64,000 nt of DNA, taken from assembly GCA_947053645.1 (NCBI GenBank), contig CAMRTM010000001.1, positions 105,583 through 169,582 on the forward strand. Direction: 5' to 3'. The position numbers and the translations under genes were made by a program. How positions within the stretch are numbered: the stretch's first letter is position 1; each line of letters begins with the position of its first letter. Positions 28,161 to 35,570 of this stretch are shown here, piece after piece. The notes under the pieces are model-generated. The model made no database searches, had not been told where the DNA came from, and saw only the letters and a program-made list of their open reading frames with translations. Source of the DNA: an uncultured Bacillota bacterium. GTDB lineage: Bacteria > Bacillota > Clostridia > Christensenellales > UBA1242.

Positions 28161-29552
28161 TTAACTGAAAAATTTCTTTTTTCGCTCTATCATTTCGTCA
28201 ATTCTGGCTATATAATCTTCAATAAACTTCACATTATCCTGTCGCTCTATCCGTTTTTCATTATTAAAGACTCGTTTACTCATTGCCCCTGCACCAACTG
28301 CAATTATAGAATTTGTTTCTTCCATACTGTCAATATTGAAAATACAAACATTATCATCACGGAAGTAACCGACATTTTCAAGCCCTCCGAGTTGATTTTT
28401 TTGACGGTACATATAGTAAGGCTTATAGCCATTATCGAAAAGCAATTTTTGTGCAAATGACACCATTTTATCCACCTCTTTATCGCACAATTGACTTGTA
28501 TCTTCTTTAAGAAGTGCGCCATTCTTAACTGAAAGTGTATGCACAGTGATATTTTCTGGAGAAAGGTCTATGAGTGTTTGCATTGTCCTTTTGAAGATTC
28601 CTAGTTTTTCTTTTGGAAGACCTGCAATAACATCCATATTCACTTTAAGTCCGCGTTCAAGTGCCATTGAATACCCTTCAAGAACCTCACTATTTTTATG
28701 TTTTCTTCCTATGCGTTTAAGCGTTGCTTCACAGAATGTTTGTGGATTTACCGATATTCTTGTGACATTATGTGCTTTCAGTACATCTAATTTTTCGGCA
28801 GTGATTGTGTCTGGGCGACCGCACTCAACAGTGAACTCGCTGACTGGAAAAGTTAGGCTGTCAAGAAGTCTATTTAATTGCTCTGCCGTCAGCACTGAAG
28901 GTGTACCGCCGCCTATATAAATTGTCCTTATTATATACGCTTTATTTGAAACTATTTTCTTTATCGCCTCTATCTCTTTGAGCAGGCAGTCTATATAAAT
29001 CTCTACCCTATCTTTTACGCGTGACAATTCGTTTGATATGAATGAACAGTACAAACATCTTGTTGGACATATGGGAATATTAACATACAAATCTACAAGA
29101 TTATCATTGCGTATTATACATTTCTGATTCTTAAGTGTCATGGCTGTAAGGCGTGCTTTATCTCTACTTACCATATAGGTCTTTTCAAGCACATCTGCTA
29201 CCATGAAATCTTTAATCTCTCCTCTCTCTATCATATCACGAGCAAACTTTGTTGGCCGTACACCCGTTAAACTTCCCCATGGAAGAGTTTTCTTAGTAAC
29301 GGTGCTTAATAAATCGTAAAGAGCTATCTTGACCTGCTTTTTCCTTAAACTTTTTTTAGCAAGCGCCGTTAATCCTTCTTCATAATCATAAGCGCTTTCA
29401 TAATACTGCCCATTACCTAATTTAAATTTATTTATTATTCTTCCATCAAGATCTACTTCTTCATGAGTGATAGACATATCAGAAATGCCAAACAAATTAC
29501 AAAGGTCTTGAAGGTCTGTTAATAATTCCTCCTTATTTGTTATTACATCCAT
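28161..29552 (-). CDS. hemZ: Radical SAM protein HemZ
   Basis: PWGSLTGVRPTK, YVNIPICPTRCLYCSF and YYMYRQKN. Confidence 0.92.
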   Translation of the reverse strand: MDVITNKEELLTDLQDLCNLFGISDMSITHEEVDLDGRIINKFKLGNGQYYESAYDYEEGLTALAKKSLRKKQVKIALYDLLSTVTKKTLPWGSLTGVRPTKFARDMIERGEIKDFMVADVLEKTYMVSRDKARLTAMTLKNQKCIIRNDNLVDLYVNIPICPTRCLYCSFISNELSRVKDRVEIYIDCLLKEIEAIKKIVSNKAYIIRTIYIGGGTPSVLTAEQLNRLLDSLTFPVSEFTVECGRPDTITAEKLDVLKAHNVTRISVNPQTFCEATLKRIGRKHKNSEVLEGYSMALERGLKVNMDVIAGLPKEKLGIFKRTMQTLIDLSPENITVHTLSVKNGALLKEDTSQLCDKEVDKMVSFAQKLLFDNGYKPYYMYRQKNQLGGLENVGYFRDDNVCIFNIDSMEETNSIIAVGAGAMSKRVFNNEKRIERQDNVKFIEDYIARIDEMIERKKKFFS

Positions 29553-31633
29553 CTTTCACTCCTTTGTACATAGGTAACATTCTTAAGTGACCGTACATTT
29601 GTCATCACTTTTTCAAGTTCCGCAGTGTTTTTAACCGCTACCGCAATATCACATATAAAATTTTCTCCAACATCTTTTGCATCAAAGGCTGTGATTAGCA
29701 CCTTCATATTTGTAATTAGCGTTGTTAGTTTTGCAATGTTATTATTAGACTTATTCGCTACCACATGTATGGTGGCAATGAAATTTTTCTTCTCTTTTGT
29801 CGACCATTCAGCATTGATTAATCTTTCGCTTTCAAGGTATTTAAGATTTGAACAACTCTTTCTATGAATTGTTACCCCCTTACCACGAGAGATATAACCT
29901 ATGATTTCATCGCCTTCGATAGGATTGCAACAGCAAGCATACCTTACAAGCATTCCACTATCGCCGTCAATAAGCACACCTTCTTTATTCTTCTTTACTG
30001 TCACTACCGTTGTCTTTTCTGGCAAGGTGACATTATCTTTTGACCATAGGGAAATAAATCTTCCCACAACTTGATTCGCAGTCATACTGCCAGAGCCTAT
30101 TGCAGCATATGCCTCCTCTATCTTTTTCATTGTGAGTTTTGGGAGGATTTGGTCGAGGTATTTATCTGTGAGTAGTTGTGAAGATGTAAACCCTTTATCT
30201 TTAATTGCTTGGTCAAACATTGCTTTACCACTCTTTATATTCTCTTCTTTAAGTTCATTTTTGAAAAATGTCTTAATTCCGCTTCTTGCCCCACTTGTCT
30301 TTACAAGATTAAGCCAATCGCGCGAAGGCCCCTTACTATTTGGATTGGTAAGTATCTCGACAATATCTCCATTCTTTAACAGCGTTCCTATTGGCTGAAT
30401 TTTAGAATTTATCTTTGCTCCAACGCAGGTGTTTCCTACCTGTGAATGTACTGCATATGCAAAATCTATTGCTGTCGCACCCTCTGGAAACTCTAGTACT
30501 CTTCCCTTAGGTGTCTGACAGAAAATTATCCCTCCATACAGGTCGGCTTTAAGGGTTTCAACAAACTCTTCAGGTGGAAGATTTTTGGCGTTATCTATCG
30601 CTTCTCTAAACCATGTAACGCGGGTATCTAATTTGTCCTTTTTGGTGGTCTTCTCTTTATACAACCAATGTGCATAACTTCCAAATTCACTTGCACGGTG
30701 CATTTCAAAAGTCCTTATTTGAATTTCAAGCGGATGCTGATTTTCAACAATTACAGTGGTGTGAAGGGACTGATAGCCATTTGGCTTTGGATTTGCAATA
30801 TAGTCCTTAACTCTGCCCGGAATTGGCTTATATATTTGATGGATTCGCCCTAGTATGGAGTAGCATTCCTCTACTCTATTAACGATGACACGCATTGCAA
30901 GAAGGTCATAAATTTTATCTAGATGGGTGACTGTATTTAGTTTCTTATATACACTGCTTATATGTTTTTGTCTATGGGTGATTTCGCCATCTATTTTTAG
31001 GTCGGTCATAATTTTTCTAAGCTTCTCTTCCGTGATTGCAAACTGCTCATTATTCTCCTCGCGTTTACTTTCAAGTTGCATTGCAAGGTCAGCATATTCT
31101 TTTGGATGTTCAAGCCTTACCACATCATCATCCATTAATGATTTAAGTTTATCAAGCCCAAGTCTTTCAGAAAGTGGGATATGAATCTCTTTTACCAGAT
31201 TTATAAAATCACAGTTTTCTCTTGTCAAGTTTTCAATTTGTCTAATATCATAGGCAATACCTGCTAGTTTTATCATCACTACACGAACATCTTTACTAAG
31301 GGCAAGAAACATTTTTTTGATATCTTCCGCTTCTTCACTCTTTGTAATTGCTTGCAAATCCTTTATTGATTTGAAACTTTCAACCAGTTCCTTCTCTTCA
31401 TTATTTAACCTCTTAATAATCTCTTCTGCTTCCTCAGGACTAGCCTTATATAATTGATATGTCAAAAAAGCAAGAACCGAACTTTTATCAAGTTTTGCGT
31501 TTATTATGCAATCAAGAATGTAATCGCATCTGGAAAAATTGATTTTTTTAGAAAGTATGAGGTCTAGAGTTTCTGCATCATGTTCATCAAAACTATACTT
31601 ATTTAATATTTTTTCTCGTATTTGACTCTTCAT
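29543..31633 (-). CDS. rel: Long RelA/SpoT homologue: intact synthetase, TGS, ZFD and ACT; degenerate HD hydrolase
   Basis: RQKHISSVYKK, YDLLAMRVIV, KDYIANPKPNGYQSLHTT and EIQIRT are present. The HD region reads AFLTYQLYK and KLAGIAYDIR. Confidence 0.93.
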   Translation of the reverse strand: MKSQIREKILNKYSFDEHDAETLDLILSKKINFSRCDYILDCIINAKLDKSSVLAFLTYQLYKASPEEAEEIIKRLNNEEKELVESFKSIKDLQAITKSEEAEDIKKMFLALSKDVRVVMIKLAGIAYDIRQIENLTRENCDFINLVKEIHIPLSERLGLDKLKSLMDDDVVRLEHPKEYADLAMQLESKREENNEQFAITEEKLRKIMTDLKIDGEITHRQKHISSVYKKLNTVTHLDKIYDLLAMRVIVNRVEECYSILGRIHQIYKPIPGRVKDYIANPKPNGYQSLHTTVIVENQHPLEIQIRTFEMHRASEFGSYAHWLYKEKTTKKDKLDTRVTWFREAIDNAKNLPPEEFVETLKADLYGGIIFCQTPKGRVLEFPEGATAIDFAYAVHSQVGNTCVGAKINSKIQPIGTLLKNGDIVEILTNPNSKGPSRDWLNLVKTSGARSGIKTFFKNELKEENIKSGKAMFDQAIKDKGFTSSQLLTDKYLDQILPKLTMKKIEEAYAAIGSGSMTANQVVGRFISLWSKDNVTLPEKTTVVTVKKNKEGVLIDGDSGMLVRYACCCNPIEGDEIIGYISRGKGVTIHRKSCSNLKYLESERLINAEWSTKEKKNFIATIHVVANKSNNNIAKLTTLITNMKVLITAFDAKDVGENFICDIAVAVKNTAELEKVMTNVRSLKNVTYVQRSERWM

Positions 31634-33987
31634 CTTTCCTCCTTAAATGTGCTTTTGAGTAACATCAATTTATTATACAATCTTGACTGCGTAAGTTCTC
31701 TTTTCGCCGATTTATTGATGTAAATAGTAAGTCCTTCATTGTCAACTACATTTATTAGACCAAGTTCAGCAAATGTCTTAAACGCAACATAGAAGGATGC
31801 AAAACTTACACCTGTTAAATTTGTTTTATCATACAATTCAAACACATTATATACAGTTTTCCCCGCTTTAGCACGAAGAGCATTAAATATTCTGCCAAAT
31901 GTATCGCGACTTAAATCTAAGCCCGCAAATTTTTTATAATTAGCATCTTTTTCTATAGGCAGATATATATCAGCATTTGTAACGCTGTTAAGGGCAGAAA
32001 TAAAGCCAGAATCAAGCACTGGTGAAAGAAATACAATTTTAGAATAATTCTTTGCCCAATCCAATCCTTTTGGAGAAAGAAGGAGGCTATTATAACCTAT
32101 CTCACTGGAATCATAAATTCCAAAATGATAGATGTTCTTTGTGCTATAATTCTTAGAAAATTCGACATAATCAAAACAAGAATATGTGACGAATGCAGTG
32201 CCAAAAACAGATGTGGAAGTGCCACTGACAAAATTTAAAAGTTCACTTTTAGGATATAAATTAAATTTTGCTTCTGTTACTTTTTCATAACCAAGTTGAC
32301 CAAATTCTATGGGATTTAACTTTTTATATGCGTCTTCAGCAATAAAACTTCCACCATCAAATTTTGATACTGTACCCTTTGTTGACCTTGGTTTAAATTC
32401 AAATATTATGCTTTTTTGACGAGAAAATGTCATCTTGAGTATGCTATCAATGAAATTGAAATACAACATTTCAAAATTGTCTATTTTAATGCTTGCATGC
32501 TGCGGAAACCTTTTCATAGGTGTAAAATTCATGTCAGTCACTGTTACCTTGAATTTTGGACTTGGATTCTCACAGCCAAATGGCTCTAAAATGGATAGTT
32601 CTTTAACAAATTCTGGAGTAATTTCGTTTACTAATATTTCTTGATCATAATATTCAATTGGAATAAAAACCTCATCATTTACATTTTGAAGTGCAAAAGC
32701 ATTTATCCGTTGTACAAACTGCTCATAGTGGCATCTTTTTAAACTCAGTCCTGCAGCCATACTATGTCCACCGAAGGTATCTAGAATATCTTTTGTTGAA
32801 GAAAGAAGTTCATGTATGTTTATATCATCAATACTTCTACCAGAGCCAGAAAGCGTGTCACCATCCTGAGCAAGCAAAAAGACTGGCTTATGATATTTAT
32901 CTACAAGCCTTGAACAAACTATACCAAGCACTCCTTTATCCCATGACCTTGATGCAAGAACTATAACTCTTTGCATACGCATGTCTTGCTTTGCAAGCGC
33001 TTTTTCACAATCAGCATAGATTTTATTGCAAATTTCCTGTCTTTTTGTGTTATGATTCTTGATTTTTTCAATATACTTTTTAATTTTTACTGGGTCGGTT
33101 TCAAAATACAGTTTAAGACTGTCTGAAGCATCCCCCATTCGACCAGATGCGTTCAGTTTTGGTGCAATCTTAAAAGAAATTTCAGTGGAATTTGGCTTAA
33201 GAGTGCTGAGTTCATATTCCCTAAAAAGCATTTTCAGCCCTATGGGAAGATACTTATCCATGAGTTTAAGACCGCGTGTAACTATTGTACGATTCTCACC
33301 AATTAGTGGCACTATATCGGCAATCGTCGCTATTGCTGCAATAGGCAAAAACTGCTCCGCTTCTTGTCTTCCAAGTAGAGCCTCCGCTACTTTATATGCC
33401 ACACCAGTCCCACATATCTCATGATCGGGGTATTCCTGCCCTTCTATTTTAGCATTCACAACTATTGTATCTGGTAACACCTCTGGAATATCATGGTGGT
33501 CGGTTATTGCAATGTCTATTCCTTTCGTTTTTGCATATTCTGCTTCGGTTGCACAGGAAATTCCACAATCCACCGTGATAATTAAATTTGGATTGTATTT
33601 ATCTGCTATTTTATCAATTACAGCATTTGTAAGACCATATCCATCTACAAAGCGGTTTGGAAGATAGTAATTTGCCTTGATTCCAAAAATTGCTAATGCT
33701 TTCACCATAATTGAAGTGGCACTTATTCCGTCAACATCATAATCGCCAAAAATAAGCACTCTATCGCCCATTTCACGAGCAAGAGTAATTCTATCAATTA
33801 GTTCCTTCATCCCTTTAAGTAAGAATGGGTCATTAAGTTTCTTTGGATTTAAAAATTCTTCAATCTCTTCTTTAGTAGAAAGTCCGCGTGAGCATATAAT
33901 CTCCATAACACGCGGAGATAAATTAAATTCTTGACTAAGTTCGGCTACCTTATCTATGTCCTTATTAAAAAATTTCTTAAATATCAT
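31630..33987 (-). CDS. recJ: Single-stranded-DNA exonuclease RecJ
   Basis: GDYDVDGISAT, ITVDCGI, TDHH, IATIADIVPL, SGRS and FGGHSMAAG. Confidence 0.96.
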   Translation of the reverse strand: MIFKKFFNKDIDKVAELSQEFNLSPRVMEIICSRGLSTKEEIEEFLNPKKLNDPFLLKGMKELIDRITLAREMGDRVLIFGDYDVDGISATSIMVKALAIFGIKANYYLPNRFVDGYGLTNAVIDKIADKYNPNLIITVDCGISCATEAEYAKTKGIDIAITDHHDIPEVLPDTIVVNAKIEGQEYPDHEICGTGVAYKVAEALLGRQEAEQFLPIAAIATIADIVPLIGENRTIVTRGLKLMDKYLPIGLKMLFREYELSTLKPNSTEISFKIAPKLNASGRMGDASDSLKLYFETDPVKIKKYIEKIKNHNTKRQEICNKIYADCEKALAKQDMRMQRVIVLASRSWDKGVLGIVCSRLVDKYHKPVFLLAQDGDTLSGSGRSIDDINIHELLSSTKDILDTFGGHSMAAGLSLKRCHYEQFVQRINAFALQNVNDEVFIPIEYYDQEILVNEITPEFVKELSILEPFGCENPSPKFKVTVTDMNFTPMKRFPQHASIKIDNFEMLYFNFIDSILKMTFSRQKSIIFEFKPRSTKGTVSKFDGGSFIAEDAYKKLNPIEFGQLGYEKVTEAKFNLYPKSELLNFVSGTSTSVFGTAFVTYSCFDYVEFSKNYSTKNIYHFGIYDSSEIGYNSLLLSPKGLDWAKNYSKIVFLSPVLDSGFISALNSVTNADIYLPIEKDANYKKFAGLDLSRDTFGRIFNALRAKAGKTVYNVFELYDKTNLTGVSFASFYVAFKTFAELGLINVVDNEGLTIYINKSAKRELTQSRLYNKLMLLKSTFKEER

Positions 33988-34290: not shown

Positions 34291-35469
34291 TTAATCTTCA
34301 AACTTTGATGAAATTTTTTCAAGTTCATTCTTAAAGAATAAGTCCTCACTATTATTTGACCAGTATGTCATAACTACAGTAATACTTGCTCCATTTTTAA
34401 GTGCTTTGCCTAGAGAAACCAATTTTTGGGCAATCACGACTCCTCTCTCTTTATGTCCGCTTTGCATTTCTTTTTCTACAAAACATTTATCAAGCACATT
34501 CAGCATACCTACAATATCATTTACAAACAGCACCACTTTCTCTCCCTGTGTGAGAAGTCTTTCAGCATGTGCGATTGCATCTATTACCTTACCAAAACTT
34601 ATATCATAGCCTGTGCCATATACTGTAGTCATATCCAACATATTATCTATTTCAGAAAACATGATTTGGTCTTCAAAACAGGTGTTTAGTCCAAGTGTGA
34701 TGAGTTTATAATTATTCTCTTTGCAAAAAGTCGCAAACTCTTCAAATCTATTATCTTCAAACAAATTCCCATTATATTTGAGAAGATTCCTTCTTCCACA
34801 ATACAATTTGTAATCTCCATATTGCAACCTATCTCTTGAAATCATAGGACCGTCCATAATTTCAAATCTTGGTATATATTTCCCAACTTCTACACCATTT
34901 ATTTTATATATTTTGGACATTACATAATCTTCACTTGTATTAACTCTTATTCCTTCGCAGTCAATCAAATCCCCCGCTTGAAGCCCATATACCACCGTTT
35001 CTCTTTGCGGTACAAATACCTTCTTTAGCGTTTTTCTATCTAATAAACAAGCAACTACATCATTCTTTCTGAGTATACCAGAAAAGTCTGTAGCATCCTC
35101 ATCTTCAACCTCGGTGTATACTGGAACATCTTGCGAAAAACATACAATATCTTCATATCTCAGCGGCTTTCTTTGCGTAATCATATTATCAGTGTCATCT
35201 CCGCCAGTCATCTTTGCCATGATATCTTCAAGGTTACTAAGTTTTTTAAATGGTCTACCCTTCTTGGTATGTTTTACAAGAGTTGTATCGTTATTATAAA
35301 TTCTATCTAATATAAGTTCGATTAAATCGTTTCGCTTTTTTGTCGTTGGTGATGGCACGCCCACTTCACGCCCTAATGCCCTTAGTTCAAATATTCCAAG
35401 ATTTTCTACCAGCATTTGTTTATGTTGATTTCTATCCATCTGCCTAGTCGCAAGTAAATTTATATCCAT
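34291..35469 (-). CDS. Rho termination factor homologue with degenerate ATPase domain
   Basis: Rho_N-like FELRALGREVGV...KKRNDLIELI; OB-fold-like VFVP...YGLQAGDLI; ATPase remnants AERLLTQGEKVVLFVNDI and GKALKNGASITVVMT; no Walker A. Confidence 0.8.
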   Translation of the reverse strand: MDINLLATRQMDRNQHKQMLVENLGIFELRALGREVGVPSPTTKKRNDLIELILDRIYNNDTTLVKHTKKGRPFKKLSNLEDIMAKMTGGDDTDNMITQRKPLRYEDIVCFSQDVPVYTEVEDEDATDFSGILRKNDVVACLLDRKTLKKVFVPQRETVVYGLQAGDLIDCEGIRVNTSEDYVMSKIYKINGVEVGKYIPRFEIMDGPMISRDRLQYGDYKLYCGRRNLLKYNGNLFEDNRFEEFATFCKENNYKLITLGLNTCFEDQIMFSEIDNMLDMTTVYGTGYDISFGKVIDAIAHAERLLTQGEKVVLFVNDIVGMLNVLDKCFVEKEMQSGHKERGVVIAQKLVSLGKALKNGASITVVMTYWSNNSEDLFFKNELEKISSKFED

Positions 35470-35570
35470 TTTTCGCTTCCTCCTTTCGTTTATCAACATT
35501 TTTCTCTATTTTGTTTAGTTTTTCTTTATTTTATCATTATTTTGTACAATAGTCAACTTTTTAGACAATA

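Follow-up and report, generated by a model that had tools for sequence, protein, structure and literature searches.

The 64-kb stretch of DNA analysed here (the window) belongs to a metagenome-assembled genome (MAG) of a Christensenellales bacterium (874 kb, 19 contigs, 95.4% complete) and carries rel[hS], which encodes a long RelA/SpoT homologue (RSH) and is the sole RSH-family gene of the assembly. Judging from sequence and predicted structure, we consider it likely that this Rel has turned RelA-like without a gene duplication, keeping a folded pseudo-hydrolase in front of an intact synthetase, with (p)ppGpp being cleared by accessory or non-RSH means. The gene and the domains of its product are as follows.

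29543..31633, minus strand: rel[hS], 696-aa long RSH (open reading frame (ORF), Pfam and NCBIfam matches, PDB matches).
31124..31633, minus strand: pseudo-hydrolase (HD_4-like) domain, residues 1-170 (weak HD_4 match, AlphaFold2 model, superposition on 7oiw, dN/dS).
30599..31123, minus strand: synthetase (RelA_SpoT) domain, residues 171-345 (PF04607, 126-131 bits across scans; RQKH, YDLLAMRV, GRVKD, LEIQIRT).
30338..30541, minus strand: TGS domain, residues 365-432, with DFAYAVHS (PF02824, 66.7 bits).
29831..30310, minus strand: alpha-helical and RIS/zinc-finger region, residues 442-601, with CCCNP...H..C (PF19296, 41.7 bits; Cys/His invariant).
29561..29791, minus strand: ACT/RRM domain, residues 615-691 (PF13291, 46.8 bits; Foldseek match to the ACT domain 3ibw, TMt 0.90).

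The rel ORF is uninterrupted (696 codons, ATG start), with just three codons between its start and the preceding stop. Five Pfam domains were found in the product, all above their cut-offs, in the order HD_4 (residues 33-160, 56 bits, entering the profile at position 21), RelA_SpoT (residues 220-329, 126 bits), TGS (residues 371-429), RelA_AH_RIS (the whole helical and RIS region above) and ACT_4 (residues 615-691). An earlier note on this DNA (the original prediction), made from the letters alone, had described a synthetase-only long Rel and proposed its alignment with RSH profiles. This alignment identified the protein as a long RSH, with 510.2 bits against the cut-off of 499.2 for TIGR00691 (spoT_relA) over residues 43-690, and as neither of the two proteobacterial equivalogs: the score was 391 bits for RelA (NF008124, cut-off 728) and 422.5 bits for SpoT (NF008303, cut-off 947), whose active HD motifs are also absent. 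The best sequence match in the PDB was B. subtilis Rel (6yxa, 378 bits).

The catalytic residues of the hydrolase were replaced at three places in the N-terminal domain, each located by the alignments described below.

31529..31540, minus strand: NFSR, residues 32-35, with Arg35 in place of the first Mn-ligand His of GEPYxxHP, right behind a 13-residue deletion.
31445..31471, minus strand: AFLTYQLYK, residues 55-63, replacing ALLHDVVED (HD to TY at 58-59, ED to YK at 62-63).
31247..31270, minus strand: KLAGIAYD, residues 122-129, replacing KLADRLHN (Mn-ligand Asp to Gly, His to Tyr, Asn to Asp).

The HMMER alignment to 6yxa set AFLTYQLYK on FLHDVVEDT and KLAGIAYD on KLADRLHN, and the hydrolase catalytic residues were likewise missing in the alignment to PDB 8fr8. 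MAFFT alignments with Rel from six other Christensenellales families gave the identical register and showed that the 13 residues immediately upstream of Arg35 are deleted. The His of GEPYxxHP is taken here to be the first Mn ligand, as established for RelSeq. With His replaced by Arg35, HD by TY, ED by YK and DRLHN by GIAYD, in addition to the deletion, the residue set of a bifunctional Rel[HS] hydrolase is not present: all four Mn ligands and the catalytic Glu-Asp pair are lost. Both strings quoted in the original prediction and their alignment on the ALLHDVVED and KLADRLHN positions were exact. Its own proviso, that the HD residues might be shifted but conserved, was examined in three independent alignments and no shifted copy was found; the PDB phmmer, MAFFT and Pfam profile alignments agree on the register, no His-Asp or Glu-Asp pair lies nearby, and this explanation was rejected. 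A sequencing or assembly artefact or a pseudogene was rejected as well, given the intact frame, the same state in 50 genomic orthologues and 120 protein clusters, and a dN/dS far below 1.

The synthetase and sensor domains gave the opposite picture, as had been predicted. Motifs were found for the synthetase (RQKH at 221, YDLLAMRV at 242, GRVKD at 273, YQSLHT, and LEIQIRT at 302), the TGS domain (DFAYAVHS at 390) and the zinc finger (CCCNP...H..C at 567), while the ACT domain was recognised by its PF13291 match and its similarity to 3ibw. The synthetase is of Rel type, with an RXKD motif (RVKD) rather than EXDD. Across the genus, sampled as 61 species with one genome each (39 of them at least 95% complete, and 48 counted as high-quality), the synthetase motifs and the zinc-finger Cys/His residues were invariant. 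The synthetase domain scored 131-148 bits in 59 of the 61 genomes, with exactly one copy in each, and all 48 high-quality genomes had a single intact rel. The pseudo-HD fold, the intact synthetase, the TGS His, the zinc-finger Cys residues and the ACT domain are together, as far as sequence and model can tell, the features of the monofunctional long synthetase [hS] class. The description of a synthetase-only long Rel in a Firmicute (Clostridia, Christensenellales) was thus borne out as regards a dead hydrolase and an intact synthetase at the level of sequence, while monofunctionality itself is probable on the grounds of sequence and structure.

The loss of the hydrolase is a fixed trait of the lineage. 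The dead motifs and the deletion were present in all 24 first-fetched orthologues of the same genus (48-73% identity), and both were also found in 21 further loci from public genomes. Every genus orthologue checked shares the loss, 50 of them from genomes, as do all 120 of the closest protein clusters in a large database. None of these clusters has HD..ED or DRLHN; QIRT occurs in 120/120 and RxKDYI in 117/120. When HD_4 was surveyed in 201 genomes across 42 families of Christensenellales, a weak score (40-75 bits, from position ~21) was confined to the window's family (f1), whereas the 41 other families scored 170-195 bits over positions 1-155; a full-scoring HD domain is also retained by about 110 families of the class Clostridia. 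Genomes of f1 measure 0.7-1.5 Mb, compared with 1.3-4.5 Mb in the remainder of the order. A sister genus within the family (g18; locus L076, genome G126) has the same 13-residue deletion and a pseudo-HD diverged still further, and the third genus (g19; genome G243, 99% complete) has no RSH whatsoever. By its family-wide distribution, the loss dates to the ancestor of this small-genome family; it is ancient and not peculiar to one genome.

Although dead, the domain is not decaying. Mean pairwise identity in the genus was 0.50 for the pseudo-HD, 0.65 for the synthetase, 0.64 for the RIS/zinc-finger region and 0.72 for TGS, the best-conserved domain of the protein, whereas in other families the HD domain is among the best-conserved parts (0.62 mean identity). 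Most species pairs were saturated (dS > 1), and dN/dS was calculated from the four closer pairs: 0.04-0.10 for the pseudo-HD and 0.018-0.065 for the C-terminal half, with the lowest values, 0.009-0.048, in the synthetase. The replacement residues R35, F56, Q60, K63 and G125 were invariant in the 120 clusters, Y59 was present in 119 of them, and Y128 and D129 in at least 94%. The AlphaFold2 model had a mean pLDDT of 76.8, with 85-92 over residues 1-90, and its N-terminal half superposed on the N-terminal domain of S. aureus Rel (7oiw; Foldseek, TMt 0.80, rmsd 3.5 A); for the whole chain, the top Foldseek match was ribosome-bound RelA, followed by B. subtilis Rel and SpoT. Substitution rates and the model agree that the pseudo-HD is kept as a folded domain under purifying selection.

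Such conservation would also be expected if the remodelled pocket were active, with Arg35, Tyr59, Gln60, Lys63, Tyr128 and Asp129 forming a new site that serves as an allosteric (p)ppGpp or nucleotide sensor or as a metal-independent hydrolase. The substituted positions are invariant or nearly so in the 120 clusters, basic and aromatic residues stand where the acidic metal cluster was, and purifying selection has preserved the Rel fold; the pseudo-HD of RelA is known to regulate synthesis (PMC8012599). Nevertheless, the deletion removes the stretch that leads up to the first metal-ligand His, and the conserved residues could merely form a salt-bridge or hydrogen-bond network that holds the fold. 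As far as we know, metal-independent catalysis would be without precedent in the HD superfamily, which counts against an active site of this kind, and we regard an active pocket as improbable.

The opposite explanation is that Rel is a relic, in which the stringent response has been relaxed in a host-dependent reduced genome and the protein persists through inertia or because it serves as a scaffold that binds the ribosome. The complete lack of RSH in G243 fits this explanation, as do the partial motif decay in another family (f55), two members of which have no long Rel, and the deletion of apt, dtd and an MBL-fold gene from the same operon. However, more than 120 clusters show no change in the catalytic motifs of the synthetase, the synthetase has the lowest dN/dS of the protein, the 48 high-quality genomes each hold one intact copy, and accessory hydrolases have been repeatedly retained or acquired, which is sensible only if the alarmone is made. 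Hence, the relic is the explanation to which we give the least credence.

The RelA-like state appears to have arisen within the order. The flanking genes of rel are as follows.

31630..33987, minus strand: recJ (DHH, DHHA1, RecJ_OB), directly upstream, with a 4-nt overlap between its stop and the rel start; other families of the order have it in this place as well.
28161..29552, minus strand: hemZ-like radical SAM gene, directly downstream, its start overlapping the rel stop by 10 nt.

Because their ends overlap, recJ, rel and the hemZ-like gene form one operon. Other Christensenellales families have the order recJ-(apt)-rel-(dtd)-MBL-fold-hemZ-like, and in the window the same flanks enclose rel alone, with apt, dtd and the MBL-fold gene deleted. 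The predicted absence of apt and dtd next to rel was confirmed and extended to the whole 874-kb assembly, in which tblastn with the Apt and Dtd of neighbours found neither. In a maximum-likelihood tree of Rel, with an outgroup of six sequences, f1 formed one clade (100/99) beside six other Christensenellales families; a distant donor of a horizontally transferred gene is formally possible with such an outgroup. The order-typical neighbourhood and this monophyly beside the Rel proteins of the order support the view that the window's Rel was inherited vertically. No second synthetase domain was found in any genome of the genus, which argues that no duplication preceded the loss of the hydrolase. 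Scores below the RelA and SpoT cut-offs, the RXKD motif, the synteny of the order and the clade in the tree all speak for the independent evolution of a RelA-like enzyme, as had been suggested.

A synthetase of this kind was predicted to need a separate alarmone hydrolase, and searches for a small alarmone hydrolase (SAH) or a second RSH had been proposed. In the window's genome they returned nothing. Family scans gave no second HD_4 or RelA_SpoT match in the assembly, tblastn with 20 stand-alone hydrolases of sister species gave no match at E<=10, and an unfiltered custom hidden Markov model (HMM) of RSH hydrolase cores gave no further match. On the HD_4, RelA_SpoT and HD scans, tblastn and the custom HMM, a second RSH in this genome was rejected. 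The first-look scan for generic HD domains (PF01966) found one protein, a 532-aa frame (C1:29453-29722) that is putatively RNase Y by its length; a single generic HD protein in 874 kb makes for an unusually poor set of HD phosphohydrolases. GppA/Ppx gave no match in a simple motif scan of the same genome, which is a weak test.

The sister species gave a different result, with stand-alone HD_4 genes in 22 of the 61. The SAHs are of at least three unrelated types, in frames of 177-322 aa with intact HP, HD..ED and D(R/K)LxN (loci L055-L058 and L064-L074); two of them, L068 and L071, have C-terminal extensions with Cys-rich tails. Five of the 61 species carry, beside the dead-HD Rel, a hydrolase-only HD-TGS protein of 476-490 aa, which has an intact HD_4 domain, is collinear with Rel residues 4-476 through a middle region without synthetase motifs, and ends after TGS.

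Loci L059-L063, HD-TGS genes: G010:C7:4399-4866, G021:C52:23120-23578, G004:C7:544-993, G049:C44:1423-1875 and G060:C22:17434-17886.

A scan for the RelA_SpoT domain found no small alarmone synthetase (SAS) anywhere in the genus; therefore the SAHs are not antitoxins of toxSAS, an explanation that we rejected as no genus genome has a second synthetase domain. Most plausibly, their substrate is the alarmone made by the dead-HD Rel, and the intact motifs of these enzymes in 22 of 61 species indicate that alarmone is made in this lineage and is worth hydrolysing.

These hydrolases are nevertheless dispensable. Of the 39 genomes with a completeness of at least 95%, 27 lack any stand-alone HD_4 gene, several of these being 99-100% complete in 8-20 contigs. 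When SAH presence (11 of 24 species) was mapped on the Rel tree, eight changes were needed, equal to the number for shuffled labels. Accordingly, from this patchy distribution and the absence in 27 genomes, stand-alone hydrolases are accessory in the genus. The search thus turned up hydrolases in sister species and none in the window's genome, and the supposed need for a separate enzyme found no support in the form stated, as the minority of species that have one are scattered like random labels. That a separate RSH hydrolase is optional is more surprising than the original inference.

An ordinary pair of Rel[hS] and SAH would remain if the SAH lay in the ~5% missing from the MAG. The assembly is in 19 contigs, and the nearest compared genome, G002, whose Rel is 73% identical, carries a 199-aa SAH; the synteny around it is broken relative to the window's genome, and no clean empty site can be demonstrated. 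The near-complete genomes without a stand-alone HD_4 gene and the random-like gains and losses on the tree stand against this, and absence is a genuine and frequent state in the genus, irrespective of the window's MAG. We rate a missed SAH as an even less probable explanation than an active pocket.

Two Nudix proteins are encoded in the window's genome, one at C7:16632-17150 and the other, IDI/YfcD-like, at C12:19585-20133. They received no support as a conserved replacement hydrolase: neither is core, and several genomes that are 97-100% complete have neither of them and no SAH. It is possible that they act as a replacement in the window's genome alone. Neither the Nudix candidates, which are not conserved, nor the patchy SAHs explain the clearance of (p)ppGpp by the genus core.

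Our preferred explanation, a Rel that became RelA-like without duplication, would run as follows. The ancestor of a gut family with reduced genomes lost the Mn ligands of the HD domain, the Glu-Asp pair and the 13-residue segment while keeping the fold, as the sequences show. The only role left to the pseudo-HD would be that of a structural or allosteric partner to the synthetase. Deacylated tRNA on stalled ribosomes would be sensed by the TGS, zinc-finger and ACT domains, as in E. coli RelA, and the synthetase would move pyrophosphate from ATP onto GDP or GTP to give (p)ppGpp. No bifunctional paralogue would be left, because no gene was duplicated. In about one third of the species, the alarmone would be removed by SAHs or the HD-TGS protein; elsewhere, including the window's genome, its removal may fall to an unspecific Nudix or other phosphohydrolase, to an unknown enzyme, or to dilution and slow turnover. 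A bolder extension is that the whole gut family runs its (p)ppGpp alarm with a synthetase-only factor and no dedicated hydrolase, and that clearance takes place via an enzyme class so far not connected with (p)ppGpp, the remodelled pseudo-HD pocket or dilution alone. We hold this extension to be doubtful. If true, it would overturn the accepted rule that no long-RSH synthetase can persist without an RSH hydrolase.

Several points weigh against our explanation. In model bacteria, an active synthetase in a long RSH is toxic or lethal if no hydrolase accompanies it, as established for E. coli spoT and discussed in PMC7593582; therefore, the lack of a recognisable hydrolase in most species argues for an unseen hydrolase or a weaker synthetase output. 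The MAG is incomplete and fragmented, so that this assembly may lack a small gene. The family can do without the system, as the loss of Rel in G243 shows. Finally, both 'hydrolase-dead' and 'synthetase-active' are read off motifs, sequence conservation and the AlphaFold2 model.

Atkinson et al. 2011 (PMC3153485) listed Clostridia and Bacilli as having Rel[HS], in agreement with the original statement that Firmicutes normally have a bifunctional Rel, and described RelA as the sole monofunctional long synthetase and a divergence of the HD domain in RshB. In that survey and in a 2019 review (PMC6606846), hydrolase-dead long RSHs occur only in Beta- and Gammaproteobacteria and are always backed by a bifunctional SpoT. 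According to the same review, the only degraders of (p)ppGpp outside the RSH family are GppA and Nudix enzymes, and the metabolism of (p)ppGpp in E. coli and its perturbation by Nudix over-expression are treated in PMC7593582. A full-text search of the literature gave nothing relevant on Christensenellales with ppGpp, on a hydrolase-dead Rel as the sole RSH, or on RSH in MAGs or genome reduction.

Compared with RelA of Beta- and Gammaproteobacteria (E. coli; 5iqr, 5kpv), the window's Rel has a similar dead HD domain before an intact synthetase and TGS, zinc-finger and ACT domains, and a similar mode of action as a monofunctional synthetase activated by the ribosome and deacylated tRNA would be expected. 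However, it is not orthologous, as its RelA score shows, and has RXKD instead of EXDD, motifs whose significance was described by Sajish et al. 2007, as cited in PMC3153485. Furthermore, it arose without a duplication or a SpoT-like paralogue and has its own set of substitutions and a deletion of its own. With Firmicute Rel (B. subtilis 6yxa and 8acu; S. equisimilis RelSeq 1vj7; S. aureus 7oiw) it shares the fold of the N-terminal domain, the recJ neighbourhood and the motifs of the synthetase, TGS and zinc-finger domains, but it has neither the Mn ligands nor the ED pair nor DRLHN, apt and dtd are deleted, and it has no SAS partners (RelP/RelQ).

In the RelA[hS] and SpoT[Hs] of Moraxellaceae and the RshB of Bacteroidetes (PMC3153485), the HD domain of one long RSH was likewise lost or diverged in a single lineage, and the five sister species with both the dead-HD Rel and a hydrolase-only HD-(dead SYN)-TGS protein, SYN being the synthetase domain, resemble the Moraxellaceae split. 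There, a duplicated long-RSH paralogue is stably present, whereas the HD-TGS protein is restricted to these five species, ends after TGS and is absent from the window's genome. The Rel and RelH of C. glutamicum (PMC5954133) and the SAS and SAH of Treponema denticola (PMC10434055) resemble the sister species in that an SAH would hydrolyse the alarmone in trans. The long Rel of those bacteria, where present, is still bifunctional, while the SAHs of the sister species would be the only RSH hydrolase and are accessory, of several unrelated types and missing from the window's genome.

The state described here, in which Rel would have become RelA-like without duplication and is the sole RSH protein in most genomes, is found in abundant uncultured bacteria of the human and animal gut. 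It offers a natural experiment on whether and how cells tolerate alarmone synthesis without a dedicated hydrolase, and the patchy SAH and HD-TGS genes provide a built-in contrast for finding non-RSH enzymes that degrade (p)ppGpp. As a second, independently evolved pseudo-HD, the domain can also be compared with that of RelA as to what a dead domain is kept for.

The small-genome family as a whole, with its genus carrying rel[hS], the more diverged g18 and the Rel-less g19, forms a graded series of stringent-response decay. A second, unrelated family of Clostridia with small genomes (f55, 1.1-1.7 Mb) showed partial decay at the same site (loci L077-L080; genomes G527, G607, G548 and G270), with LHDxxED changed to LH(E/G)xxK and DRLHN to DRLYN and the His ligands retained. 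Two f55 genomes (G335 and G361, 100% complete) had no long Rel and only a weak HD_4 match. This decay may be a convergent loss tied to genome reduction.

Some further observations concern annotation and neighbouring genes. Cluster P0089, a dead-HD relative with 59% identity, is named 'bifunctional (p)ppGpp synthetase/guanosine-3',5'-bis(diphosphate) 3'-pyrophosphohydrolase' by NCBI, and the whole dead-HD family is probably mislabelled by automatic annotation, a systematic error. In this genome, a homologue of the MBL-fold gene known from the rel neighbourhood of the order lies on a separate contig (C9:28435-29010). Just upstream of recJ, an ORF of 402 aa (34291-35499, minus strand) matched Rho_N weakly at residues 35-66 (E 1.4e-4), and at E<=0.001 it had no further Pfam domain; its product may be a divergent or reduced Rho-like protein.

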